A DNA stretch of 27,845 bases from a virus. Lineage: Duplodnaviria > Heunggongvirae > Uroviricota > Caudoviricetes. Both the position numbers and the translations under genes were made by a program. The notes under the pieces are model-generated. The model saw nothing but the letters and a program-made list of their open reading frames with translations. It ran no database searches and was not told where the DNA came from. The stretch lies in IMG/VR virus record IMGVR_UViG_2802429221_000019, positions 1-27,845 of that record, one strand, 5' to 3'. Positions 2,098 through 27,845 of the stretch are shown here, piece by piece (the stretch's first letter is position 1; the number at the start of each line of letters is the position of its first letter).

Positions 2098-3207
2098 TCA
2101 CTCTGTTTCCGCTATCCATTCCGGGATTTTTGCCTCAAGCTCAAGCTGCGTGGTAAAGCCGCTGTTATCAATGGTGTGCTCGGCTTTTGCAATAATCCAG
2201 TCCTGATTATCAATCTCGCTTTTAAATCCTGTTACCGTGCCATGCATTTCGGGGTAGAGTTCTGCTCGTCCACGTGCCAGCGTGATGGAGAATGATGCGG
2301 CTCCGCGTTGTAGTTGTTGCCACTTTGCCGCCGCTGCGCGTCTTGCTGCCTGCTCGTTCTGATAAGTCTTGCGTAACACAAACACATTGCCTTCCGCGCC
2401 TTCCATATAATCACCTTCACGGCTGCTGCTTTTCTCTTTTTTCGGTTTTGGCGGTTTGCGGCGTTTCACGCTGACTTTTTTCTTTTTCCCGTAATTAAGA
2501 TCAAGCCAGTAAGCGCGTACCCCCGTATACGCCTCGCGGTCAGCAATGCGGAACTGATGGCGATCGCCGCTGCTGCGGGTGATGGAGAACGATGGCAACG
2601 GCTGGCCCTGTGCGTTCACGCCACCGCCGGGCATGATGAATAACAGATTACCGCTTTTTACCGTGGTGATTGCGCCCAGCATTTCCGCCATGCGCGTAAG
2701 GAAGGACATGTCGCTTTCTTCAGTCTGGTCGGCGTGGTCGATTTCGATATCCATCAGCATTTCGCTGATTTGCGGTTTCAGACCGTACCGATGAGCGATG
2801 GCGGATACCACGCGCTCAACGGTCACATCATGCCAGGACACTTCACGTTTAACGTTAAATTCATCCCGAAAATCTGCGCTTCTGGCTGAAACAGTCAGCC
2901 TGTCCGGCGGTCCTTCGTGTGCGATTTCATCAACAATGTAAGACCCTTTTTCTGTCAGCGGTTCGCCTTTCCAGCCAATGAGAACCGTCAGGCACGCGCC
3001 CCGTGGTGGAAGCTGCAACTGACCATCCGCATCATCCAGCGTAATGGTGAGCTGGTCTGCCTCAAATCCCCGGTTGTCGGTCAGCGACAGGCTCATCAGG
3101 CGCTCTGCCACGCCGGACAGCGTTTTACCCTCCGCGAGAATATCAAAATCCGGCATTTTCACGGGGTCTGTGCTCTGACTGAGCAATTGCATGGTGGTAT
3201 CGGTCAT
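2098..3207 (-). CDS. D: tail protein D (late control D family)
   Basis: ORF-track frame 2098..3339; start chosen at ATG 3207 (MTDTTMQLL...) with SD GGGAGGGAG upstream. P2 gpD-like in size and sequence; contains a Lys-rich insertion KKKKVSVKRRKPPKPKKEK. Confidence 0.85.
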   Translation of the reverse strand: MTDTTMQLLSQSTDPVKMPDFDILAEGKTLSGVAERLMSLSLTDNRGFEADQLTITLDDADGQLQLPPRGACLTVLIGWKGEPLTEKGSYIVDEIAHEGPPDRLTVSARSADFRDEFNVKREVSWHDVTVERVVSAIAHRYGLKPQISEMLMDIEIDHADQTEESDMSFLTRMAEMLGAITTVKSGNLLFIMPGGGVNAQGQPLPSFSITRSSGDRHQFRIADREAYTGVRAYWLDLNYGKKKKVSVKRRKPPKPKKEKSSSREGDYMEGAEGNVFVLRKTYQNEQAARRAAAAKWQQLQRGAASFSITLARGRAELYPEMHGTVTGFKSEIDNQDWIIAKAEHTIDNSGFTTQLELEAKIPEWIAETE

Positions 3208-3364
3208 CTGCTCCCTCCCTGTGCGGCATGGTCGCATGTGTGTGCGGGCGGGGTTACTGCTTTTTGTTGTCGCCGGGCGGCAAGAACGGCGCAGGGGTGA
3301 GATTACGCGCGTGGTGGGTGATGATTGTTGCCGAATCATTTAACGGATACAAGGGGCTGAAGCT

Positions 3365-4549
3365 ATGAGTGAAACTCGTTTTCATGGTGCCCGTGTTACG
3401 GAAAATACCGACCTGGTAACAGCGATTAACGATGTTGATTCCAGCGTTATCGGTATCGTGGCAACGGCGGATGATGCGGACGCGAAGCTGTTCCCGCTGA
3501 ACAAGCCCACACTGCTGACCCGCGTCAATGACGTGCTGGGAAAATGCGGAACAACGGGGACGCTTTATCGTGTGCTTAAGGCCATCGCAGACCAGGTGAG
3601 CACAAAGGTGATCGTCGTTCGCGTGGCTGAACACAAAGAAGAAGACGGAAAGACGCAGGATCAACTGGTTATCGGTGGTTCTGAGGATGACGGCAGCTAT
3701 ACGGGGATGTATGCGCTGCTTGTTGCAGAGCAGGATGAAAGCATCGGATACCGTCCGCGTATTCTGGCCGCGCCGGAGCTGGACACGGAGGCGGTGACAA
3801 AATCCCTGTGCGTGATTGCGGGTAAACTGCGCGCGTTTGTGTATGCCTCATGTCACGGCTGTAACACGATGGCTGAAGCGATTACCTACCGCCAGAAATT
3901 CAACGAACGTGAAGTGATGCTCTTGTGGCCGGACTTCATCGCCTACAACACGAAAAGTGGCGAAAACGAAACGTTCCCCGCGCCTGCCTATGCGTGCGGC
4001 CTTCGTGCGTACATTGACCATGAGCAGGGCTGGCACAAATCGCTGTCCAACGTTCCGGTTAAAAATGTGCTGGGGATGTCCAGGCATGTGTTCTGGTCGT
4101 TACAGGCCGAAGACAGCGATGCCAACAGCCTCAACAACAAAGAAATCACGACCATTATTCGTCGCAACGGGTTCCGCTTCTGGGGCAACCGCACACCGGA
4201 AACGAACGCCTACATCTTTGAGGTGTATACCCGAACCGCACAGGTGCTGGCTGATTCAATTGCGGAAGCGCAGTTTGAAACCATCGACAGTCCACTGACG
4301 CCTGCGAACGTGAAGGATGTTATCAGTGCCATCAGGGCAAAACTGGATTCACTGGTTACTGCCGGGAAACTGATTGGCGCGGAGTGCTGGTATGACGTGG
4401 TGGATAACAGCACCACGGATTTACGTCAGGGGCGTGTGCGTATTCGCTACAAATATACGCCCGTTCCGCCACTGGAAGACATGGAGCTTTACCAGACGTT
4501 TACTGATGAATACTTTGAACCCGCATTTGCGGTGTTGGGAGGTGCCTGA
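3365..4549 (+). CDS. FI: contractile tail sheath protein
   Basis: 394 aa; conserved segments FPLNKP, GFRFWGNRT, YTPVPPLE as in P2 gpFI; SD AAGGGG upstream. Confidence 0.9.
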   Translation: MSETRFHGARVTENTDLVTAINDVDSSVIGIVATADDADAKLFPLNKPTLLTRVNDVLGKCGTTGTLYRVLKAIADQVSTKVIVVRVAEHKEEDGKTQDQLVIGGSEDDGSYTGMYALLVAEQDESIGYRPRILAAPELDTEAVTKSLCVIAGKLRAFVYASCHGCNTMAEAITYRQKFNEREVMLLWPDFIAYNTKSGENETFPAPAYACGLRAYIDHEQGWHKSLSNVPVKNVLGMSRHVFWSLQAEDSDANSLNNKEITTIIRRNGFRFWGNRTPETNAYIFEVYTRTAQVLADSIAEAQFETIDSPLTPANVKDVISAIRAKLDSLVTAGKLIGAECWYDVVDNSTTDLRQGRVRIRYKYTPVPPLEDMELYQTFTDEYFEPAFAVLGGA

Positions 4550-5061
4550 TGGCTGTGCCAAAACATCTTCGCTTTTTTACGCTGTTTGTGGATGGTGAAA
4601 ACGAAGTGGGTAAGGTGACGTCCGTCACTCTGCCTAAGCTGACGCGCAAAACCGACAGCTACCGGGGTGGTGGCATGATGGGGGCGGTAAGTATTGATCT
4701 CGGTCTGGACGACTCCGCGCTTGATGCGAGCTTTGTCATGGGGGGCGCAGTTCGTGAGCTGTTCCTTAAGTATGGCGGCACGATTGACGGCACGCTGCTG
4801 CGTTTTGCGGGTGAATACTACACCGATGCAGAAAGCGACCTGTATGAAGTCGAAATGCGCGGACGTGTGACGGAAATTGATATGGGGGAAGCCAAACAGG
4901 GCGAAGCCACATCACACACTTACGCCATTAAAAACACCTACTACAAGCTGAGTGTTAACGATCGCCCGTTGTGGGAGATTGACCTGCTGAACTTCATTTA
5001 CCGGAAGGACGGCAAGGACATTGCGCCCGATCGCATCCGTTCCGCGCTTGGGCTTGGCTGA
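4549..5061 (+). CDS. FII: tail tube protein
   Basis: 170 aa; ATG overlaps the FI stop (TGATG); size and position as for P2 gpFII. Confidence 0.88.
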   Translation: MAVPKHLRFFTLFVDGENEVGKVTSVTLPKLTRKTDSYRGGGMMGAVSIDLGLDDSALDASFVMGGAVRELFLKYGGTIDGTLLRFAGEYYTDAESDLYEVEMRGRVTEIDMGEAKQGEATSHTYAIKNTYYKLSVNDRPLWEIDLLNFIYRKDGKDIAPDRIRSALGLG

Positions 5062-5116
5062 TAAGTAATATGCAGGCGGCGCAGTGCGTCGCCTCTGACT
5101 GAAAAGGAGACCACTG

Positions 5117-5491
5117 ATGAAAAACATCGATACTGAAACCCAGAATAACACCGTGGCGGATGATGTGACGGCAGATGAGGATATGGCTGTCGAACGTGGT
5201 GTAAAACTTTCCCGGCCAATTGAGCGTGGCGGCGAAAAAATCACGTATGTGGAGATCACCGGGGCTATTGAGCAGGCTGGATCCCTGCGAGGTTTGTCGC
5301 TGTCTGATGTGCTGAATCTGAAAGCGGATACCATGTTCACGCTGTTGCCTCGCGTGACTTCGCCACGACTGGATGAAGTGATGATTAAAAAAATGTCGTC
5401 ACGCGATTTTATTCAGTTGTGCGCTGTGGCTGTAAATTTTATGAGCGAGCCAGACTCTGGCGCGAAGAGCGTGCAGGAGACGGCAGCGTAA
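5117..5491 (+). CDS. E: tail assembly chaperone E
   Basis: 124 aa between tail tube and tape-measure genes; SD AAGGAG 7 nt upstream; overlapping -1 frame ORF (E') continues into the T start region. Confidence 0.7.
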   Translation: MKNIDTETQNNTVADDVTADEDMAVERGVKLSRPIERGGEKITYVEITGAIEQAGSLRGLSLSDVLNLKADTMFTLLPRVTSPRLDEVMIKKMSSRDFIQLCAVAVNFMSEPDSGAKSVQETAA

Positions 5492-5655
5492 TCACCCTGG
5501 TGTGCTTTGAGCACATCGAAGATCTGGTGGCGGATATTGCCGCCATTTTTAACTGGTCGCCCGCCGAAATCTTCATGATGACGCCCGGCGAAGTGGTTAG
5601 CTGGCGTGAGCGGGCGGCACTTCGCAGCGGGAATGCAGACAATGAAGACTCTTGA
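5117..5655 (+). CDS. E+E' tail chaperone produced by programmed -1 frameshift (predicted)
   Basis: -1 frame is open from 5389 to 5655; slippery heptamer A AAT TTT at 5434-5440 in the E frame; analogous to P2 E/E+E' and lambda G/GT. Confidence 0.45.
5434..5440 (+). promoter_or_regulatory. candidate -1 ribosomal frameshift heptamer AAATTTT
   Basis: X XXY YYZ pattern in the zero frame of E inside the E/E' overlap; an alternative A7 run at 5387-5393 is less favourably placed. Confidence 0.4.
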
Positions 5656-8449
5656 TATCCGGGTCGCTTTCAGCGCCGTTGACAGGCTGACCCGGCCTGC
5701 CGAAAACGCCCGCCGCCTGATGGGGCAGTTTGGTGACTCCATCCAGCGAACGCAGGGGGCGATCAAAAATCTCGAGCGTCAGGCGCGTTCATTTGAGCGC
5801 GCCCGTGACGCTGTCAGTAAAGCGGATGCGGGCATCGTAAAAGCACGACGCCAGCTTAACGCCCTTAATCAGTTACAACGCACGGGTACAGTGCTCAGCG
5901 AAAAACAGCAAAAGCTGATGCAGCAGTTAAGCACCCGGCTTGAACGCCTGAATGAATCGCGCACACGGGAAATTCAGAAAATGCGGGAACTTGGCGGAGA
6001 GCTGAAACGCCACGGCATTTCCCTGACAGGCAGCGATAACACCATCCAGCAGGCCATCAGACGCACCGAACAGTACAACAACCAGCTTGAACGCGAACGG
6101 CAGGCGCTTGCGCGTGTAACGCGGGCGCGTGAGCGGTATTCGCGCGCGCAGGAAACAGCGGGAAAACTGAAAACAGGTGGTGCGCTGGCAATTGGTGCGG
6201 CAGCGGCGGGCGGCTATGCTGCCGGGCGTTTTTTGCAGCCTGCGATCGGGTTCGGGAAAGAGATGTCCCGCGTTCAGGCACTGACGCGAATCGACCAGAA
6301 CAGCCCGCAGTTTAAGGTGCTGCGTGAGCAGGCGTTAAAACTTGGCTCTGAAACGCAGTTCACCGCAGGCGATGCCGCCAGTGGACAGGCATTTCTTGCA
6401 ATGGCTGGCTTCACTCCGCAGGCCATTCAGGCTGCGCTTCCCGGCGTACTGAGCATGGCAACGGCTGGCGGTATGGATCTCGGCGAGACGGCAGATATTG
6501 GCTCAAATATCCTGACGCAGTTCGGCCTTTCTGCTGACCAGATGGACCGGGTCGGTGACACACTCACCGCAGCGTTTACCCGTACCAACACTGACCTTCG
6601 CGCACTGGGCGAAACCATGAAATATGCAGGTCCGGTGGCGGGTAAGCTGGGAATATCGCTGGAGCAGGCCGCAGCGATGGCGGGCGTACTGGCGAATATG
6701 GGCATCAGAGGGAGTGATGCCGGGACGGCAATGCGTGCCAGCCTGGCTCGTCTGGCATCACCGCCAAAGGCAGCGGCAGAAGCGCTGAAAGAGCTGGGCG
6801 TGTCCGTCTCGGATGCCGGGGGCAAAATGCGCCCGATGGAAGATCTGCTGGCTGACCTTTATAAAGCTACCCGCAAATACGGGGAAGTTGACCGGGTATC
6901 CTTCTTTAAGGACATCGCCGGGGAAGAGGCTTTCACATCGTTTATGGCACTCGTTGATGCGGCGGGTGACGGTTCCTTACCCAAACTGAGAAAAGAACTT
7001 GAGGGCGCACGCGGTGAGGCTGAACGCACGGCAAAGGTTATGGCCGACAACCTTGATGGCGACCTGAAAAATCTCGACAGCGCATGGGAAGGTCTTCGTA
7101 TTCGCATCAGTGATCTGGTTGACGGTTCGCTGCGTTCTGTCACGCAGTGGCTAACGCGGGTGGTCTCAAAAGTGACGGCACTGGCGCAGGCCCATCCTGT
7201 ACTGACGCGCCAGCTACTGATTGCAGGCGGTGCGCTGCTGGCAGTGACTGCAACCGTAGGCTCGTTGTCGCTTGCTCTTGGTGTGCTTGCTGGCCCACTG
7301 GCAAAACTGCGTCTTGGTTTTTCCCTCCTGACCGGATCAATGAATGCTGTCAGGCTCCTGCCTGCACTATGGGGAATGGTGACGGGTTCCGTTTCGTTAC
7401 TGGGGGGCGCTATCGGGGCGCTGTTCAGCCCGGTCGGATTGATTGCTGCTGCGTTTGTGGCTGCGGCAGTTCTCATCTGGAAATACTGGGAACCCATCAA
7501 GGCGTTTTATGCCGGGGTGTTCAGCGGGATTATGGAGCGGCTGGCCCCGTTACGCGAAACCTTTGAACGGTTTGGTCCTGTTTTTGACGCAATCGGAAGC
7601 GGGATCAGCCAGGTGTTTAACTGGTTTAAATCGCTGTTGTCACCGATGGAGTCCAGCAAGGAAACGCTGGATAAATGCACAAGTGCTGGCGAGGTATTCG
7701 GTAACGTTCTTGGCGGTGCGTTACAGCTTGTCCTGACGCCTGCAAAAATGCTGCTGGATACGTTGGCGTGGATACTTGAAAAACTCGGTGTTCTTCCGGA
7801 TGAAGCGGAAAGGGCGCGCAAGAAAATCGAAGACGCGCAGCGTGCGGCCATTCTTCAGGACAAGGTTGCTCTGTTTCAGGGAGACATTGCGAAAATCAAT
7901 CCGCCGAAGCCTGTGGAAAATGGCAATGGCACCGGAGGTGATAACCCCAAAGACAACAAACCGCTCACAGACAGCAATACCGGTACGCTACGCAGACTCA
8001 GCAAAATTGCTGATAACACAGGTAAGCTGGTTGATGAGACGAAAAAACGCATTGGCCCCGGCGATATTGTCTTTAAGAACCTGCCCCGCGCACTTGCCGT
8101 TCGTGGGGAGTGGCAGGAGCGGAAGATTGCGCAGGTCAGTAAGCCTGCCCCCGCAATTAATATCACACCTGTGGTTCCGGCTCCGCTGCCTCCGGCGCTG
8201 GTCCCTGTTGTTGCGGCCAGCTCCCGCCCGGTGGCAGAGGCCATACGATCGCCAGTGGCATCAGTTCCTGCAACTTCCCGTAACCGGGAGCCTGTTGCCT
8301 CCGGATTTGGCGGTGAAATTCATGTTCATCTGCATAACGTTGTTACGCAGAATCCCCGCGAACTGGCGAAACTGGTCGGTGAAATGGTCAGGGCAGAAAT
8401 GGAACGGCGCGCCCGTGCCGGGCGTGGCAGTTTTTACGATAAAGATTGA
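5606..8449 (+). CDS. T: tail tape measure protein
   Basis: 947-aa ORF (GTG at 5606; possible ATG starts at 5633 or 5642); coiled-coil N-terminus, Gly/Ala-rich hydrophobic core, position between chaperone and U. Confidence 0.85.
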   Translation: MSGRHFAAGMQTMKTLDIRVAFSAVDRLTRPAENARRLMGQFGDSIQRTQGAIKNLERQARSFERARDAVSKADAGIVKARRQLNALNQLQRTGTVLSEKQQKLMQQLSTRLERLNESRTREIQKMRELGGELKRHGISLTGSDNTIQQAIRRTEQYNNQLERERQALARVTRARERYSRAQETAGKLKTGGALAIGAAAAGGYAAGRFLQPAIGFGKEMSRVQALTRIDQNSPQFKVLREQALKLGSETQFTAGDAASGQAFLAMAGFTPQAIQAALPGVLSMATAGGMDLGETADIGSNILTQFGLSADQMDRVGDTLTAAFTRTNTDLRALGETMKYAGPVAGKLGISLEQAAAMAGVLANMGIRGSDAGTAMRASLARLASPPKAAAEALKELGVSVSDAGGKMRPMEDLLADLYKATRKYGEVDRVSFFKDIAGEEAFTSFMALVDAAGDGSLPKLRKELEGARGEAERTAKVMADNLDGDLKNLDSAWEGLRIRISDLVDGSLRSVTQWLTRVVSKVTALAQAHPVLTRQLLIAGGALLAVTATVGSLSLALGVLAGPLAKLRLGFSLLTGSMNAVRLLPALWGMVTGSVSLLGGAIGALFSPVGLIAAAFVAAAVLIWKYWEPIKAFYAGVFSGIMERLAPLRETFERFGPVFDAIGSGISQVFNWFKSLLSPMESSKETLDKCTSAGEVFGNVLGGALQLVLTPAKMLLDTLAWILEKLGVLPDEAERARKKIEDAQRAAILQDKVALFQGDIAKINPPKPVENGNGTGGDNPKDNKPLTDSNTGTLRRLSKIADNTGKLVDETKKRIGPGDIVFKNLPRALAVRGEWQERKIAQVSKPAPAINITPVVPAPLPPALVPVVAASSRPVAEAIRSPVASVPATSRNREPVASGFGGEIHVHLHNVVTQNPRELAKLVGEMVRAEMERRARAGRGSFYDKD

Positions 8450-20616: not shown

Positions 20617-22368
20617 ATGATTCAGGACGCTTTTGTGCGCCAGCGTGCGCGACAACTTTACTGGCAGGGTTATCCGCCCGCTGAAATATCACGTCTGATG
20701 GGAATAAACCCGAACACGATTTATGCGTGGAAAAAACGCGACCAGTGGGATGAAACGCCACCCGTGCAGCGTGTCACGCAGTCCATCGATGCGCGCCTCA
20801 TCCAGCTTACTGAAAAACAGAATAAAACAGGCGGTGACTTTAAGGAAATAGACCTGCTGACCCGGCAGCTTAAAAAACTGCATGATGGCCAGCCGGATGC
20901 GACGGCCACAGGAAAGAAAGGCCGGGCGAAAAAGCTTAAAAATCATTTCACGCCGGAACAGATTGCCGCACTGCGGGAAAAAATCATCAGCAGGCTGGAG
21001 TGGCATCAGCGGGGCTGGTTTGACTCCCTGACCCTTTGCAGGGAAGCCGGGATACGTAACAGGATGATCCTGAAATCCCGACAGATTGGGGCGACCTGGT
21101 ATTTTGCACAGGAAGCACTGCTGATGGCGCTGCGTGACGATGTGGCGCAACCTTACCAGCGTAACCAGATTTTTTTGTCTGCGTCGCGTCGTCAGGCGTT
21201 CCAGTTTAAAAGCATTATTCAGAAGGCTGCATCTGAAGTTGATGTGGAGCTGAAAGGGGGCGATAAAATCATCCTCTCCAACGGCGCAGAACTGCATTTT
21301 CTCGGTACTTCTGCTGCGACGGCACAGTCCTACACAGGCAATTTTTATTTTGATGAATTTTTCTGGGTCAGTCGCTTTGCTGAACTGCGCAAGGTGGCTG
21401 GCGCTATGGCAACCCTCAGCGGGCTGCGACGCACCTACTTCTCCACGCCATCAACCGAAACGCACGAGGCATACGTCTACTGGAACGGCGACCGCTGGAA
21501 CGAGAAAAAGGCCGCGCATAAACGCCAGCGTTTTTCTGTGGACTGGAAAACGCTGCATAACGGGCTTATCTGCCCCGACCGGACGTGGCGGCAAATTGTC
21601 ACGCTGGAAGATGTGGTTAATCACGGCTGGAAACACACCGATATTGATGAAATTCGTGATGAAAACACCGAAGACGAGTTCCGCAATCTCTATATGTGTG
21701 AGTTTGTCCGCGAAGGGGAATCGGCATTTAACCTGAATATCCTGATTGGCTGCGGCGTTGACGGATACGACGACTGGAAAGACTGGAAACCTTTTGCTCC
21801 CCGCCCGATGGGGAATCGTCCGGTATGGATTGGGTATGACGCAAACGGCAGCAGTGGAAACGGCGACAGTGGCGCGGTGTCCGTGGTGGTTCCTCCGGCT
21901 GTTCCTGGTGGCCGTTTTCGAACGGTGGAGACGCGACGCGTTCAGGGGCTGGAGTTTGAAGAACAGGCCAGAGTCATTGAAGAGTTCACGTGTCGCTACA
22001 ACGTGGAACACATCGGCATTGATGTGACGGGCGGGAACGGGGAGGCTGTTTATCAGATAGTGAAACGGTTTTTCCCTGCCGCTATTCCGTACACCTTCAC
22101 GCTGTCATCAAAACGGTCGCTGGTACTGAAAATGCTGCAAATAATGCGTGCCGGGCGGTGGGAATACGATCGCGCCGAACGCGAGCTGGTCGCGGCCTTT
22201 AACGCCGTGCGTAAGGTGAAAACACCGGGCGGCTTTATCACTTACGAAACGGACCGCGCGAGGGGGATCAGCCACGGCGACCTTGCGTGGGCAACCATGC
22301 TTGCTGTCATTAACGAACCAATTGGCGGCGAAGGAGAAAACGAGCGTTTCACGGTTATGGAGTTCTGA
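20617..22368 (+). CDS. P: terminase large (ATPase) subunit
   Basis: 583 aa; SD GGGGGAG upstream; divergent from O as in P2. Confidence 0.9.
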   Translation: MIQDAFVRQRARQLYWQGYPPAEISRLMGINPNTIYAWKKRDQWDETPPVQRVTQSIDARLIQLTEKQNKTGGDFKEIDLLTRQLKKLHDGQPDATATGKKGRAKKLKNHFTPEQIAALREKIISRLEWHQRGWFDSLTLCREAGIRNRMILKSRQIGATWYFAQEALLMALRDDVAQPYQRNQIFLSASRRQAFQFKSIIQKAASEVDVELKGGDKIILSNGAELHFLGTSAATAQSYTGNFYFDEFFWVSRFAELRKVAGAMATLSGLRRTYFSTPSTETHEAYVYWNGDRWNEKKAAHKRQRFSVDWKTLHNGLICPDRTWRQIVTLEDVVNHGWKHTDIDEIRDENTEDEFRNLYMCEFVREGESAFNLNILIGCGVDGYDDWKDWKPFAPRPMGNRPVWIGYDANGSSGNGDSGAVSVVVPPAVPGGRFRTVETRRVQGLEFEEQARVIEEFTCRYNVEHIGIDVTGGNGEAVYQIVKRFFPAAIPYTFTLSSKRSLVLKMLQIMRAGRWEYDRAERELVAAFNAVRKVKTPGGFITYETDRARGISHGDLAWATMLAVINEPIGGEGENERFTVMEF

Positions 22369-23414
22369 TGAGCAGAAAAAATAAAAAAGTGCGCATGAGT
22401 TCACGCATTGATCTCGCTGATGCGCTCAGGAAAGAATCGTCGCTCAGTGCATTCACATTTGATGGTCCTTACCGCCTGACCGGGCATGACCTGCTGGACA
22501 ATATGTACTGTGCTGATAACGGGCGATGGTATGAAACCCCGGTGGACTGGTACGGTCTGGCAAGAGCTGCCCGGCAAACGTCCTGGCATCAGTCTGCGCT
22601 TTACTTTAAGCGTAATGTATTGCTCGGCTGCTATATTCCGCATCCGCTGCTTTCCCGGCAGGATTTCTCGGCGCTGGCGCTGGACTGGTTTGTGTTCGGT
22701 AACGCATTCCTTGAGCTTCGAAGCAATATGCTCGGCGAACCGCTTAAATTACGGCACGCCCTGGCGAAATACATGCGACGCGGAAGCGATCTTGAATCAT
22801 GGTGGTATGTGCAGGATGGCAAGGACGCGTTTCAGTTTCGCCCTGGCAAAGTGTGCCACCTGATGAACCCGGATATTAACCAGGAAATCTACGGCATGCC
22901 GGAATATCTTGGCGCATTACTCTCGGCCAGCCTGTCTCATTCGGCGGACATGTTCAGAAAACTGTACTACGACAATGGATCCCACGCCGGGTGCATCATC
23001 TACATCGGTGCAGCGCAGGTAAACCGCGAAAGCATGGACTCCCTGAAGGAAACGCTACAGGGTGCGCGTGGTGGTGGTGCATTTAAAAACGTGCTCATTC
23101 ACGCGCCAAACGGGGGCAAAGAAGGTGTGCAAATTTTGCCGTTCCAGCAGATCACCGCAAAGGATGAGTTCATGAATGTTAAGGCGGCATCCCGTGATGA
23201 TGTGCTGGCTGCGCACCGCGTTCCGCCGCAACTGATGGGGGCGATGCCGGGCGAAAAAAGTGCGTTTGGTGATGTGGAGAAGGCAGCGCGGGTTTACGCA
23301 ATTAACGAGCTGATGCCCGTCATGGAGGCCATGAAGCACATCAATGACTGGCTTGGCGAAGAGGTGATCCGTTTTAATTCTTATGCTCTTCTTGATGAAA
23401 AAACAGCCCCGTGA
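22368..23414 (+). CDS. Q: portal protein
   Basis: 348 aa; ATG overlaps P stop (TGATG); P2 gpQ-like size and position. Confidence 0.9.
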   Translation: MSRKNKKVRMSSRIDLADALRKESSLSAFTFDGPYRLTGHDLLDNMYCADNGRWYETPVDWYGLARAARQTSWHQSALYFKRNVLLGCYIPHPLLSRQDFSALALDWFVFGNAFLELRSNMLGEPLKLRHALAKYMRRGSDLESWWYVQDGKDAFQFRPGKVCHLMNPDINQEIYGMPEYLGALLSASLSHSADMFRKLYYDNGSHAGCIIYIGAAQVNRESMDSLKETLQGARGGGAFKNVLIHAPNGGKEGVQILPFQQITAKDEFMNVKAASRDDVLAAHRVPPQLMGAMPGEKSAFGDVEKAARVYAINELMPVMEAMKHINDWLGEEVIRFNSYALLDEKTAP

Positions 23415-23430
23415 TGGGGCTGTCCTTTTT
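23403..23430. terminator. bidirectional intrinsic terminator between Q and the convergent 174-aa gene
   Basis: stem ACAGCCCC / GGGGCTGT with 5-nt loop, overlapping the Q stop, followed by CCTTTTT; the complementary strand has a T-run on the other side. Confidence 0.65.
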
Positions 23431-23953
23431 ACCAGAGTTGAACCATTTTCTGTGTGCCGTCAGGCTTGAGATTATCAATTTCAGAGAGAACGTAATATTG
23501 AATGGCTTCACAGACGGTGGTGTATGGTGAATTACCTTCTTTAAGTGGCACGATATTATTATTAACGCGAACCTGTATTTCATCGTTATACATTGCGATC
23601 GAAAGAGGAGTATGCACGAAGGCGACTTCGCCAGGTGTGTCGTCAACCACTGTCTCAATGCTGAAAATCAGTTTTCGCTCATCATTGCCGCCCCTTGCTT
23701 TGGGGGTAGCGGCAGGAATCTGAGATAAAGGCATTCTGCGAAACCCTTCAGCCGTTTCCAGTCCGCATGAAACGTAATGCTGGCGATTACCGTCGCTATC
23801 AGTCCATGTCTGTGATGGCAGCTCCAGAGAGATTTCATAAGCATCAACAATTCCCTGGGCAATGCGTACAAGCGGGGTCAGGTCTTCATTGCGGCGAAAA
23901 CTCTCCTTTACCTGATCTCGTTTTTCTCGTAACTGCTTGTAATTAATGACCAT
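23429..23953 (-). CDS. hypothetical protein, 174 aa, no recognised domain
   Basis: ORF-track frame 23429..23992; start chosen at ATG 23953 (MVINYKQLREKR...) with SD GGAGG 7 nt upstream; ends at the bidirectional terminator; GC content looks lower than the phage core. Confidence 0.5.
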   Translation of the reverse strand: MVINYKQLREKRDQVKESFRRNEDLTPLVRIAQGIVDAYEISLELPSQTWTDSDGNRQHYVSCGLETAEGFRRMPLSQIPAATPKARGGNDERKLIFSIETVVDDTPGEVAFVHTPLSIAMYNDEIQVRVNNNIVPLKEGNSPYTTVCEAIQYYVLSEIDNLKPDGTQKMVQLW

Positions 23954-24358
23954 AAGACAGCCTCCATTGATTTCTTTGCTCGTATTTTGCACTTATGAAG
24001 TGTGGTCGGCAAGGTGCCGCATCACTGACGCGCTTCGCTTGTCTGCTGCTTCGCCGGGGCATAAAAAATTTATGCCCCGACTCTCCAGCTCCCGTATCAA
24101 TCAGATAATTTCACGACGTCTTCCAACTTATCGCCATCATCGACGGCCAGACTCTTACGCAATCCCATCGAGCTGATAGCATGTTCTCGCCGCCTCAGTG
24201 CGATTTTGACGGCCTTACCTTTCACCCCATCAAATCAGAACCCCTTACGTATTTTTCACGCTCAGCGTGAGCGATACAGCCATTCTGTTGTGTCGCTGCG
24301 ACATCGTTCAGGGAATGCTATTTACCCCCTGAAACGCGGGCTGTTCCCCCGTCACCTG

Positions 24359-24382
24359 CGCGCAGAAAAAGCGCGTTTTTTT
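24359..24382 (+). terminator. terminator-like hairpin with U-tract (plus-strand sense) in noncoding region
   Basis: CGCGC - AGAAAAA - GCGCG followed by T7. Confidence 0.35.
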
Positions 24383-24450
24383 GTGCACGCACGGATCCTT
24401 GACGGATCCAGCCGCCATGCGGGCCGGAAGGGCAAAAAGTCGTTCAAAAA

Positions 24451-24480
24451 AATTGTGCAAATTTGTGCACTATTGTGCAA
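24451..24480. repeat. three tandem 10-bp repeats (ATTGTGCAAA / TTTGTGCACT / ATTGTGCAAA)
   Basis: TTGTGCA core at 24453, 24463 and 24473, exactly one helical turn apart, at the boundary of the AT-rich island. Confidence 0.6.
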
Positions 24481-24718
24481 ACCGAACGGAGTGCTTATTT
24501 ATAGAAAAATTGAGCCTATGTATACGACGTTGCTTATAAATACATCCCTGACTGTTATGTGAAAATATGCAAAGAAAATTACATGCTATGGAGATGAGAG
24601 TTATAACGACCTTTTCTACTTATTTGTAAAAGAGGTCGTTATGTAAAAGTTAAATTATTTTTTACTCTTGATATGTGTAAAAAATATAGCTTTGATGTTT
24701 ATATCCTATTAGAATACA

Positions 24719-26416
24719 TTATTTATCCTCTTTAATGATTTTGTTATAGTCAAAATCCCAAATTTTTCTGTCAATGCCGTTTGTTGGTGTAACCCGGTAG
24801 AATAAGGATCGTAATCCATTGTAAAAATACTGGAGAGATTTCTGATTTTCTGGTTTGTCTAACCAGTTTCTTGTAATCATTCTAAAGAATTCAATATGCT
24901 GATTGAATATTTTCTTATTTAATTTTCTTCTTAAACCGGATGTAGACTCATGGTTGTCTTTTCTTTTCTGAATTTCAGTTTCAATTGATTGTAATTGAGG
25001 ACGTATCTTGAGTAAGTATAACTCTTTCGAAAAACCATTGTTAATTATATCCTGATTTTCCCAGAAGGAAGAGTCGTCGGTATTATAAAGGTGCTCACAA
25101 TGCTCAAATATCAATTGTTCTGGAGCTTTTTCACCCGGCAGTGATATAATTCCTCTCTGATCCTCAGGGCTGTGATCTCCATCAAGAATACAAATTGATT
25201 TTAACGAGGTTTCCTTAAGATGAGAATCATTAAAAATAGTTTTTAAATTGTCTGCACCAATGAAACAATCAATTAAGTGAAATGAATTACTAACTATAGC
25301 AAAATTTGGATATTTGCTTATCCAATAACCAAGTATTTCATTAAATAAAAAGCGAGCTTCTTCATCTTCCGTGAAAACTGGTATCTTGTTCCTTGTGTAT
25401 ATCTCATCCTTTGTTTGTGTTTTCAGATACATTGTTATTTTTAATATATCAGGATTATCCAAAAGCAGAGCCTTTGTAATATTGTTAATTAGATAGGCAA
25501 CATGATATTTTTTATGAAAAGCATATTCTAGCAATGTCAGACTGTGCGTTGTGAAAAATACTTGAATCTTATAATCTTTTGCGTATTGATAAATTTTATC
25601 TAATAATCTTATCTGTAAAGAAGGATGTAAAGTGGCATCAAATTCATCTATTAACAGAATGCTTTCTTTTTGATCAGTGGATTGAATAAGTGATTCAAAA
25701 TAATACCTAAGGCTAACTAATGCCTTGATTATAACGAATATATTGTCTTCCCCGGATGATATGGTATTAGAATCAATTGCTGGGTTATCGGTATCAAATA
25801 ATGGGCCAGCTTTAAAATCTCCGATATTGTTTGATTCTATATTTATAATATTAATGCCCAAAAGTTCATTATATATTTTCGATATATAACCAACATACTC
25901 TTCTGGTAGGTTTAACGGAATTTTTGTAAGGGCGTCGTCTTTAGTTTCACCAATTGGGAATAGTCGCGATAATCCAAGATATAAAACTGGTTTAGCTGGA
26001 AGTGATTGTTTTTCTTTTCCGCGTGGGTATACTGGTTTGATAGCATACCGTTGCGCTTCGTCTGGATTTTTTGAGTTGTGCTTTCTGAAGTCTAGTGTGC
26101 TATGATCCAAATAGTTAATAGAAAATAACACACCTTTTGTTCCCTCTGCCGGATCGGTGTAATTTTTTGATTCCCTAACAATTGCTTCCATTTTGGGGTT
26201 GGCTATTTTGTTTATAGATTTTATAACTCTAACACAATTACTATTTGAATAATTTTGTGATCGAGATGGTGGCATTTGGAAACCATTGCTAATTAAATGA
26301 AGCAATGTTGTCTTACATGTCCCATTGGTTCCTGATATTATATTGATGTCTTCATTGAATGAGAAGTCAATATCTATCAGTTTCTTAAATTTTTTAAAAC
26401 TAATTTCTTTAATCAT
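24719..26416 (-). CDS. OLD-family-like ABC ATPase with C-terminal Toprim-like nuclease domain
   Basis: 565 aa; Walker A GTNGTCKTT (aa 29-37), signature-like ISSGE (aa ~219-223), Walker B ILLIDE (aa 253-258), H-loop FFTTHS (aa ~287-292); C-terminal PVFTEDEE (Glu ~350) and ILDGDHS (DxD 412-414) fit a Toprim fold; SD AAGGA 8 nt upstream; very AT-rich. Confidence 0.7.
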   Translation of the reverse strand: MIKEISFKKFKKLIDIDFSFNEDINIISGTNGTCKTTLLHLISNGFQMPPSRSQNYSNSNCVRVIKSINKIANPKMEAIVRESKNYTDPAEGTKGVLFSINYLDHSTLDFRKHNSKNPDEAQRYAIKPVYPRGKEKQSLPAKPVLYLGLSRLFPIGETKDDALTKIPLNLPEEYVGYISKIYNELLGINIINIESNNIGDFKAGPLFDTDNPAIDSNTISSGEDNIFVIIKALVSLRYYFESLIQSTDQKESILLIDEFDATLHPSLQIRLLDKIYQYAKDYKIQVFFTTHSLTLLEYAFHKKYHVAYLINNITKALLLDNPDILKITMYLKTQTKDEIYTRNKIPVFTEDEEARFLFNEILGYWISKYPNFAIVSNSFHLIDCFIGADNLKTIFNDSHLKETSLKSICILDGDHSPEDQRGIISLPGEKAPEQLIFEHCEHLYNTDDSSFWENQDIINNGFSKELYLLKIRPQLQSIETEIQKRKDNHESTSGLRRKLNKKIFNQHIEFFRMITRNWLDKPENQKSLQYFYNGLRSLFYRVTPTNGIDRKIWDFDYNKIIKEDK

Positions 26417-26433
26417 CTATATCATCCTTAAAT

Positions 26434-27279
26434 TTAAATGTCAGGGATTTTTATACCATGATTATAAATGATAATTTCTAGACCTTTTTTCTTATCTTGT
26501 GCAGTATAATTAAGCGTATAATCAGTCATATTGAATTCATGATATATGCTTTTTATTTCAGGCACATTGTCATAAGACACAACCCAAGGTAGTTGAATTT
26601 CCCGTAGTGTATTAGCGATTTTTACATGATCATCATGTTTATAAAAATTTCTATATAACTCTGCTCCTTTAACATAATAAGGTGGATCAAGATATATTAG
26701 ACTATTTTGGGGTAGCAATGCTTTTTGGTGTAGCAGAAAATCTACAGCATCAAAATTCGATACGTAAATTTTCTCCTTATATGCCCCAATTAGTTCAATC
26801 CTTTTAATTAACTCTTTTTTGTTGAATCGTGCATCTAACTTCCATGGTCCTTTTTGTTCTTTCCCTCCAATAACGCCAGCCTTAAGTATTCCTGAACGGT
26901 TTGTTCTATTTAAAAAGAAAGTAGATAATGCGACTTCAAGCATACTATATTTATCATTGTTTAGGAGTATCTCCTTTTGAGTATGCCAATTTTCAATAGT
27001 CACAGGAACTTCATCAATCATTTCACATAACAGATCGTTATGATTAACCACTGCAAACCAAAAAGAATAAAGGGCAGGATCAATATCATTTATGAAGATA
27101 TTTTCAACAAGACCGTTAAGGAGCAAACCTAATGCAACACCGGCTCCACCTGCATAAGGTTCAGCATAACATCCACCAATGAGATCATTGTTGCGGAGTA
27201 TTTGTTCAATATGTGGCAAGAATTTTGCCTTACCTCCCGGATAACGAAGAGGGGTTCTAAAATGAGAAGGCTTTGTCAT
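26434..27279 (-). CDS. Dam-family (D12 class) N6-adenine DNA methyltransferase
   Basis: 281 aa; motifs YPGGK (aa 13-17), EPYAGGAGV (aa 40-48, SAM-binding FxGxG type), DPPY (aa 198-201); 17-nt gap to the downstream OLD-like gene. Confidence 0.85.
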   Translation of the reverse strand: MTKPSHFRTPLRYPGGKAKFLPHIEQILRNNDLIGGCYAEPYAGGAGVALGLLLNGLVENIFINDIDPALYSFWFAVVNHNDLLCEMIDEVPVTIENWHTQKEILLNNDKYSMLEVALSTFFLNRTNRSGILKAGVIGGKEQKGPWKLDARFNKKELIKRIELIGAYKEKIYVSNFDAVDFLLHQKALLPQNSLIYLDPPYYVKGAELYRNFYKHDDHVKIANTLREIQLPWVVSYDNVPEIKSIYHEFNMTDYTLNYTAQDKKKGLEIIIYNHGIKIPDI

Positions 27280-27367
27280 CCACGATTTTCTCAGTAAAAA
27301 ATAAACATAATCTTAACATGGCACTTGAGTTTTCCCGATAAAAAACATCGTCGCCGTCCATAGATAT

Positions 27368-27383
27368 TTGCATAGTTATGCAA
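27368..27383. promoter_or_regulatory. perfect palindrome TTGCATA-GT-TATGCAA, candidate operator in the leader of the methyltransferase operon
   Basis: 16-bp dyad located between the predicted promoter and the methyltransferase start. Confidence 0.35.
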
Positions 27384-27402
27384 AAAATCCAGTTTTCAAT
27401 GA

Positions 27403-27432
27403 ATTAAGGGGAATTATATCAATTGCATTCTA
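27403..27432 (-). promoter_or_regulatory. candidate extended -10 promoter for the methyltransferase/OLD-like operon
   Basis: minus-strand TGATATAAT (27411-27403) with weak -35 TTGTGT (27432-27427, 18-nt spacer). Confidence 0.35.
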
Positions 27433-27464
27433 TTCAACACAATATTCGGTTAGCGATTCACATC

Positions 27465-27845
27465 TCATCCCTCATGATGGAAAAGGCATATCCAACTTTG
27501 TAATTGTTTTTTCTCATCATCATTTTGATTACTAAAGTGCTGTTTGCCTCTCTTTTGGAGCAAAGTAGCCTTGCGGCGGGCGCGTTCAGTGGTTTCATTG
27601 ATTCTTTGTGCGTGCTCTGCGTCACGGATGGCGCGCAGCATGTCAGAAAGCACGGTAACGGGAGTTTTCATGGTGTTCTGGTCCTGCTGAATTGTGGATG
27701 CCAGGCGTGCGGCGGCTTCGGGGTCTGATGCCCCGAGCTGCTCCAGATAGCTGGAGACCGGGTTATGGCGGATCTCCGTGCTGCTTACGCCGTGATTACG
27801 GCTCAGGCGCTGCCAGAGCTGCGTGATTCGGCTGTCCGGGCGGGT
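27465..27845 (-). CDS. phage early-region protein, C-terminal part (5' end outside window)
   Basis: frame is open from the window edge (hand translation ...TRPDSRITQLWQRLSRNHGVSSTEIRH...) to the stop at 27465; function not recognised; last ~30 codons are AT-rich. Confidence 0.55.
   Translation of the reverse strand, partial: TRPDSRITQLWQRLSRNHGVSSTEIRHNPVSSYLEQLGASDPEAAARLASTIQQDQNTMKTPVTVLSDMLRAIRDAEHAQRINETTERARRKATLLQKRGKQHFSNQNDDEKKQLQSWICLFHHEG

Follow-up and report, generated by a model that had tools for sequence, protein, structure and literature searches.

A low-GC methyltransferase and OLD-family cassette at the tin/old hotspot of a P88-like prophage, and the island-encoded end of its replication gene

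How does a replication gene in GC-rich phage DNA come to end in DNA that is strongly AT-rich? The question is raised by the IMG/VR virus record IMGVR_UViG_2802429221_000019 (Caudoviricetes), of which positions 1 to 27,845 were analyzed; this whole stretch of 27,845 nt is called the window below, and island coordinates are window positions. An AT-rich island occupies the DNA from ∼24.45 to 27.55 kb, and the open reading frame (ORF) on its right, which ends at 27465 on the minus strand, has its last codons inside the island. The ORF is the 3′ end of gpA, the replication endonuclease gene, and the island lies between gpA and the presumed cohesive end site (cos) of the phage. Very probably, a low-GC cassette encoding a DNA methyltransferase and an OLD-family protein replaced the interval of a known hotspot together with the tail of gpA, in what would be an ordinary cassette swap.

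Extent and junctions of the AT-rich island

In 200-nt sliding windows, GC content was 0.26 to 0.42 from ∼24.45 to 27.55 kb compared with ∼0.44 to 0.60 on either side, and maximum-likelihood analysis placed the composition change-points at 24434 and 27568. As bounded by homology breaks on both sides, the island spans 24483 to 27567 (3,085 bp) and has a GC content of 0.323, against 0.538 for the rest of the window. None of 428 windows of the same size outside the island fell below 0.487, and the contrast is far beyond chance. An earlier note, made from the letters by eye, had described an AT-rich island in GC-rich phage DNA at 24440 to 27560; the sliding-window values bear this description out, and its coordinates are accurate to ∼10 to 40 nt.

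The junctions were mapped by aligning to the window 80 IMG/VR loci that encode close kin of the gpA C-terminal region, a comparison of the kind suggested in the note, and fall at 27568 and at 24478 to 24482. On the right, ∼70 loci without this cargo are 95 to 96% identical to the window from 27845 to exactly 27568, where the alignment ends, and this break coincides to the base with the composition change-point. The conserved 3′ part of gpA (27568 to 27845, minus strand) has a frame that is open to 27845 and is cut by the window edge only, the gene leaving the window at its right end. In the prophage of E. coli TW10598, to which the region is 98% identical, full-length gpA has 941 aa and a Phage_GPA domain at residues 179 to 503. 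Beyond the break, the last 33 codons and the stop of gpA are encoded by the island (27465 to 27567, minus strand, 103 nt, stop codon at 27465 to 27467), much as the note had put it when it assigned the last ∼30 codons to AT-rich DNA. The GC content of this tail is 0.35, compared with 0.57 in the preceding 103 nt. The window gpA ends ...RRKA-TLLQKRGKQHFSNQNDDEKKQLQSWICLFHHEG and that of the ∼70 relatives ...RRKA-DLLRGGLTSGNKKQTETGLTNPVNEQKTRSDI; ∼95% of P88-type gpA genes end in RGGLTSGNKKQTETGLTNPVNEQKTRSDI, a tail different from that of the window.

The window tail was found only with this island. Among 5,426 complete E. coli genomes, 15 carry the island at 100% coverage, always beside a gpA with the window tail. 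The 13 IMG/VR contigs that match an exact 42-mer of this tail likewise all have the island in its place next to gpA. The junctions are common to all carriers. A search of 5.8 billion proteins with the tail recovered three fragments only, all of the same lineage, and an exact 35-mer found no match in species-representative genomes. The note had named the same AT-rich tail on homologs in unrelated phages as the observation that would speak against its reading; it was looked for, and in these searches the tail keeps company with this island alone. As a protein query the C-terminal 245 aa of gpA gave only 13 matches, mostly fragments, and tail diversity was therefore taken from the 80 IMG/VR loci and the E. 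coli genome counts.

At the left edge, all relatives align to 24478 to 24482, the last base of the third copy of a TTGTGCA repeat, and then split into at least 12 unrelated sequences. The three copies are spaced at 10 bp (24453, 24463, and 24473) in an array detected by Tandem Repeats Finder with a period of 10 (24449 to 24481, plus strand). Among the 57 relatives whose left junction was mapped, 56 keep the array as conserved backbone. The exception is locus L073, in which a deletion (equivalent of window 24422 to 24482) has taken away the array and some of the putative cos terminus region; if packaging depends on the array, the L073 prophage is probably packaging-defective. The earlier note had the left edge coincide with the 10-bp tandem repeats. 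The edge does adjoin them, but it falls just after the third copy, the repeats themselves being conserved backbone. The left change-point (24434) sits 45 to 48 bp to the left of the homology break because the conserved stretch between the two is itself AT-rich.

The linear record P88_4B11 (LR595891) starts and ends at 24434/24435, which presumably marks the cos cohesive end, and we place the putative cos terminus region at 24416 to 24434. Aligning the P2 cos junction to the window gave chance-level matches only, and the termini of the P88_4B11 record were used instead. The TTGTGCA array lies 15 to 45 bp from this deposited terminus; P2 has an analogous set of three (T/G)TGCAT repeats 100 to 140 bp from cosR. 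The array presumably belongs to the packaging signal, where it may bind terminase or serve as another packaging element, and the left edge would then mark how far DNA can be replaced without loss of packaging. A fourth TTGTGCA (at 24381) and a GGATCC-TTGAC-GGATCC repeat, both within 24381 to 24410, lie just to the left of the putative cos, and the TTGTGCA motif flanks the terminus on both sides.

Judged by its sequence, the window is a P88-like E. coli prophage (Xuanwuvirus, Peduoviridae, P2 family); the phages nearest to it are P88 and further Xuanwuvirus phages of the same family. The position of the island, between replication gene A (gpA ending at 27465, minus strand) and cos/portal gene Q (P88_4B11 termini at 24434/24435), is that of the known variable 'tin/old' hotspot of P2. 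This gpA-cos/gpQ ('TO') locus is a well-documented defense hotspot (Rousset 2022, PMC9122126; Vassallo 2022, PMC9519451; Moura de Sousa 2026, PMC13586616). P2 itself carries tin and old at the same locus, and among the close relatives of the window the flanks are conserved (92–99% identity) and the cargo is unrelated, with lengths of 1.9 to 5.1 kb.

Replacement and the makeup of the gpA C terminus

In all loci with the majority tail, 1186 to 1352 nt directly after the gpA stop are conserved and encode ParM and a partition protein, followed by variable cargo up to the cos-side repeats. The ParM/partition module is wholly absent from the window, whose relatives hold 1.9 to 5 kb of other DNA in the same interval. 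Because the relatives keep the module after gpA and the window lacks it, the event was a replacement and not a simple insertion: the island took the place of the tail of gpA, of the partition module and of whatever cargo lay distal to it. The earlier note had proposed that insertion of the cargo replaced the original C terminus of gpA. The tail was indeed replaced, but not by a simple insertion, and the 'original' tail is itself partly cassette-encoded.

Counts of junction types in the complete E. coli genomes put gpA followed by parM in the majority, with 1,299 genomes. A cassette encoding an AAA ATPase and an S8 peptidase (the L089 type), with a gpA tail ending ...HKASLLQDKGNSEKKK, was found in 40 genomes, the present island in 15, and a three-gene cassette of GC 0.34 (the L077 type), with a tail ending ...RKADLLQSWLNNRNKE, in 8. 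These three minority cassettes, all AT-rich, break at the same codon and each has its own tail, of 33 residues after RRKA in the window and of 15 and 12 residues in the other two. In the L089 cassette (L089 6328 to 9698; E. coli H77-H84), the AAA ATPase has 373 aa and the Peptidase_S8 protein 741 aa.

All four tail alleles retain R(R/H)KAxLL(Q/R), with synonymous differences, and the conserved part of gpA ends at about ...RRKAxLL. Past the break, the window and L089 tails are identical at 16 of 30 nt (shuffle p = 0.001), compared with 7 of 30 nt for the window and majority tails (p = 0.56). The 'LQSW' common to the window and L077 tails was considered as homology and treated as chance, the codons being different and the downstream DNA unrelated. 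An open frame of 33 codons in island DNA has a chance probability of ∼0.11, and the read-through therefore needs no special explanation.

The majority tail, too, draws its end from neighboring DNA. In locus L092, a zinc-finger-like ORF of 155 aa that precedes parM ends ...QEKKQTKTGFTNPVNEQKTRRDI, which is the distal tail of majority gpA, and from AAAAAACAGACAG on, 66 nt ahead of the gpA stop in P88, the DNA of P88 and L092 is 96% identical. The last 21 residues of the majority tail thus come from the region upstream of parM, and L092 fuses them to an unrelated ORF. The two unrelated proteins, gpA and the 155-aa ORF, share the tail KKQTxTGxTNPVNEQKTRxDI. In the same region, two 36-nt hairpin repeats (ACGGGAyTyAsrAATCCCGT core; fold z = −4) straddle the majority gpA stop, 76 nt upstream of parM, at ∼5915 to 6060 (minus strand) in L002 (P88) and 5690 to 5835 in L092; the region is plausibly a parC-like centromere or a promoter.

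Endings of gpA vary in other ways as well. Changes in the length of A-runs (A6/A7) in the majority tail have produced frameshifted endings in L039, L044/L053, and L056 (...GNKKTDRNGTHESRK, ...GNKNRQKRDSQIP, and an extended ...EQKRAAIYEARTKQAKTGFQNPVND, each followed by a stop), and a frameshifted form of the window tail exists (P0003). An alternative C-terminal allele of gpA (P0013-P0015; L092 4483 to 5295), 46 to 49% identical over ∼150 residues, ends ...HRHQGDESQ, ∼70 residues earlier. This allele is in circulation among P88-like prophages of E. coli, and gpA is therefore mosaic throughout its C-terminal third. P2 gpA aligns only to residues 77 to 706 of the P88-type protein. These observations suggest that the extreme C terminus of gpA is weakly constrained; the frameshifted tails, the L092 fusion, the shorter allele and the limited P2 alignment together show that the downstream DNA, whatever it is, determines where and how gpA ends.

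The cargo genes and their neighbors

The gene next to gpA (26434 to 27279, minus strand) encodes a D12-class N6-adenine DNA methyltransferase of 281 aa with a DPPY motif (Pfam MethyltransfD12, E = 1.3e-20). Its residues 6 to 280 match positions 3 to 277 of the 291 in the PADLOC profile PD-Lambda-5_B (PDLC04018, E = 8.7e-122); its score for the NCBIfam dam subfamily was below the cutoff.

The second gene (24719 to 26416, minus strand) encodes a protein of 565 aa with Pfam matches to AAA_15/AAA_21 and SMC_N, for which the best PADLOC matches were HEC-04, ATPase-Toprim_I-B and AriA. The motifs GTNGTCKT (residues 29–36) and LIDEFDATLHP (residues 255–265) are invariant or nearly so, as expected of the Walker A, Walker B and signature motifs of an ABC ATPase, which here is N-terminal. 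Glu350, Asp351, Glu353 and Asp412-Gly413-Asp414 are invariant in 33 homologs (45–82% identity), as expected of the Glu and DxD of a Toprim domain; Pfam gave no Toprim match for this protein. The AlphaFold2 model has a pLDDT of 80, and its top Foldseek matches are the retron Eco8 OLD effector, Gabija GajA and the Thermus OLD protein 6p74, aligned over the full length with a probability of 1.00 and with TM-scores that are low (0.2–0.3) because the domain arrangement differs. From the invariant acidic residues, the model and the PDB matches, the protein is identified as an OLD-family ATPase-Toprim protein. Some of its homologs bear the source name 'ATP-dependent nuclease', a name only, and it has a full-length match to phrog_3940, of unknown function.

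The two genes recur as a pair (24719 to 27279 in the window; loci L093-L100). They are found in integrase-associated islands beside smpB in Klebsiella and Salmonella, where 75% nucleotide identity (GC 0.33) covers 24746 to 27319 only, and they are adjacent, in reverse order, in a Desulfosporosinus prophage; in all, the pairing is conserved in three unrelated contexts and is widespread, with more than 1,300 homologs from Enterobacterales to Firmicutes. The shared core excludes 27320 to 27567 and with it the tail of gpA, as well as most of the spacer that separates the stop of gpA from the methyltransferase start. This spacer (27280 to 27464, minus strand, 185 nt) is island-borne and shares only 27280 to 27319 with the core. 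It contains an extended −10 element, TGATATAAT, read by eye on the minus strand at 27413 to 27421, and a perfect palindrome, TTGCATAGTTATGCAA, at 27368 to 27383 (TTGCATA-GT-TATGCAA), which could be the promoter and operator of the cassette; a promoter scan listed no minus-strand promoter in the spacer. Downstream of the ATPase gene, a hairpin with 17-nt arms (24603 to 24642; inverted repeat I5, 88% complementary, 6-nt loop) is possibly a terminator, one not called by the terminator scan.

We regard the cargo as foreign, and the methyltransferase-OLD module looks like an uncharacterized or chimeric defense system akin to restriction-modification (R-M). PD-lambda-5 consists of a ParB/HEPN protein and a methyltransferase (Vassallo et al. 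2022, supplementary table). The window methyltransferase resembles the PD-Lambda-5_B component over its full length, whereas its partner is the 565-aa ABC-ATPase/Toprim protein and not ParB/HEPN, and PD-Lambda-5_A was absent from the 25 best PADLOC matches of that protein. Assignment of the cargo to PD-lambda-5 was rejected on account of this different partner, and assignment to MADS on account of an NCBIfam MAD3 score of 15 against a cutoff of 420.

OLD nucleases fall into four classes, represented by P2 Old (class 1), Gabija GajA (class 2), the retron Eco8 effector (class 3) and PARIS AriA/AriB (class 4). The window protein shares with them an N-terminal ABC ATPase and a C-terminal Toprim-like domain with invariant acidic residues (E350, D351, E353, DxD412-414). 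It differs in that its sequence similarity to them is confined to the ATPase motifs, and in that its conserved neighbor is an adenine methyltransferase rather than a helicase, a reverse transcriptase or a DUF4435 protein.

To the left of the island, the window encodes the large terminase (20617 to 22368, plus strand) and the portal protein, gene Q (22368 to 23414, plus strand). Between the portal stop and the cos region lies an ORF of 187 aa (23429 to 23992, minus strand) that matches phrog_5091, of unknown function, and has no Pfam, PADLOC or NCBIfam match. This ORF is a second, smaller presence/absence polymorphism, kept in the window and some relatives and lost with ∼630 bp (23390 to 24016) in most others. 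An Rfam scan of 23400 to 27845 found nothing, and the window contains no Chi sites that might have served as a recombination cue.

Origin of the island and its meaning for the hotspot

The cassette swap that we favor would have proceeded as follows. A foreign, low-GC segment replaced the DNA from 27567 to 24483, that is, from 103 nt before the gpA stop to the last base of the TTGTGCA array, and gpA is now read into island DNA as far as the first in-frame stop, which gives it a new tail of 33 residues. This tail is probably functionless and incidental. Most likely there was a single event of illegitimate recombination; we conjecture that the cassette later spread by homologous recombination via the conserved gpA and cos flanks, and such a spread fits because carriers vary in the left flank, where the 187-aa ORF left of cos may be present or not. 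The sharp edges would reflect what the phage cannot lose, namely gpA as far as about ...RRKAxLL and the packaging site with its repeats. As to the cargo, it probably acts as an R-M-like antiphage defense, in which the methylase would mark host and prophage DNA and the OLD-type nuclease attack unmarked incoming DNA.

Several points weigh against this account. What looks like the start of the island in gpA probably consists, for a few codons, of an old and diverged allele of the gene and not of random foreign DNA, because the similarity to L089 runs ∼10 codons past the break and xLL(Q/R) is present in all four alleles, and the right junction may be compound, with two nested replacements. At the left edge, more than 12 cargo types begin at the same nucleotide, which could mean that a site-specific process was at work and not only selection. 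The island is absent from the records of isolated phages, and the viability of phages with the new tail is therefore a presumption. PADLOC offers no system-specific model for the nuclease, and the defense function of the cargo is predicted from domain-level evidence.

Could the AT-rich tail instead be a genuine, selected C terminus that has a function, for example in coupling replication to the cassette? A divergent P2-like phage of low GC would then have donated the tail with the rest of the island, through homologous recombination within gpA. The motif kept by all four alleles with synonymous differences, the significant 16 of 30 nt shared with L089 and the break of three different AT-rich cassettes at one codon would all fit such an origin. 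However, the tails are unrelated past ∼10 codons and unequal in length, frameshifted tails persist, an open frame is expected by chance at P ∼0.11, and neither the 5.8 billion proteins nor the species-representative genomes contain a divergent gpA with the window tail; we consider this explanation unlikely. Less likely still is a discrete mobile element (an insertion sequence, transposon, integron-like cassette or integrative island) that entered the 3′ end of gpA by means of its own recombinase. Edges that are sharp to a single base would suit an element of this kind, as would the presence of the same module beside a tyrosine integrase in the Klebsiella and Salmonella islands and a contig, L107 (∼2450 to 7600), in which the island, with only about the last 195 nt of gpA, abuts a tyrosine integrase and a host btuC-like gene; L107 may be what is left of a decayed prophage, or a cassette that has moved. 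Yet the core shared with the integrase islands stops well short of both island edges, at 27319 and 24746, the left edge is common to many unrelated cargos, and relatives hold other DNA, and not an empty site, between the same points. Gene content and Pfam matches reveal no transposase or integrase in the island, and a search for terminal inverted or flanking direct repeats bounding it returned only short, chance-like pairs; the features that define a transposon, insertion sequence or integrative element, its own recombinase with terminal repeats or a target-site duplication, were thus not found here.

The abruptness of the composition change is the one feature that might point to an assembly chimera, or to low GC produced by local selection on native phage DNA. 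Identical junctions in 15 complete genomes and 13 IMG/VR contigs speak against both, as do two intact genes that form a conserved pair at the same low GC in other taxa, and we give these explanations almost no credence.

Replacement by a foreign cassette, by comparison, places the island among familiar structures. It shares with the P2 tin/old hotspot the order gene A, cargo, cos, portal, as well as the low-GC cargo, the conserved flanks with alternative cargos and an OLD-family nuclease. In contrast to that hotspot, the right break here falls within the coding frame of gpA, 103 nt short of the stop, and the ParM/partition module, which 95% of P88-like phages retain between gpA and cargo, has been removed; P2 old and tin are transcribed opposite to gpA, whereas the window cargo runs in the same direction as gpA. 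Lambdoid phages evolve as mosaics by illegitimate recombination followed by homologous exchange via conserved flanks. The island resembles the 'moron' and mosaic junctions of those phages in having DNA of foreign composition between conserved modules, a promoter-like sequence of its own and junctions shared by descent. Morons, however, sit at a gene boundary, whereas the window junction is inside the coding region of an essential gene and creates alternative C termini.

The kind of locus was already known, and the elements that are new, the base-level anatomy of the junctions and the pairing of methylase and OLD protein, are only modestly so. The anatomy adds detail to a hotspot for which PMC9122126, PMC9519451, PMC13586616 and bioRxiv 2024.10.15.618418 give a description at the level of genes, and leaves the general picture of P2 hotspots unchanged. 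One edge is pinned to the end of a repeat array by the presumed packaging site; the other can lie within the replication gene, the last 20 to 35 codons of which are supplied by the neighboring cassette. Automated delimitation by 'genes between gpA and gpQ' overlooks such a chimeric end of gpA and takes the ParM module, which is backbone, for cargo. The junctions bear on how cassettes are exchanged, and the methylase-OLD pair is flagged as a candidate defense system.

A bolder joint reading, which we entertain tentatively and hold to be somewhat doubtful, has two parts. One is that the methylase and OLD-type protein form an uncharacterized type of defense, methylation guarding against the nuclease, that would add a fifth to the genomic contexts of OLD nucleases and would differ from both PD-lambda-5 and OLD classes 1 to 4. 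The other is that the 3′ end of gpA in P88-like phages is an 'open socket' in an essential gene, in which every neighboring cassette, the majority ParM module included, supplies the C terminus of gpA. If the socket is real, cassette swaps would always remodel the replication protein, and might thereby tune replication or the expression of the cassette.

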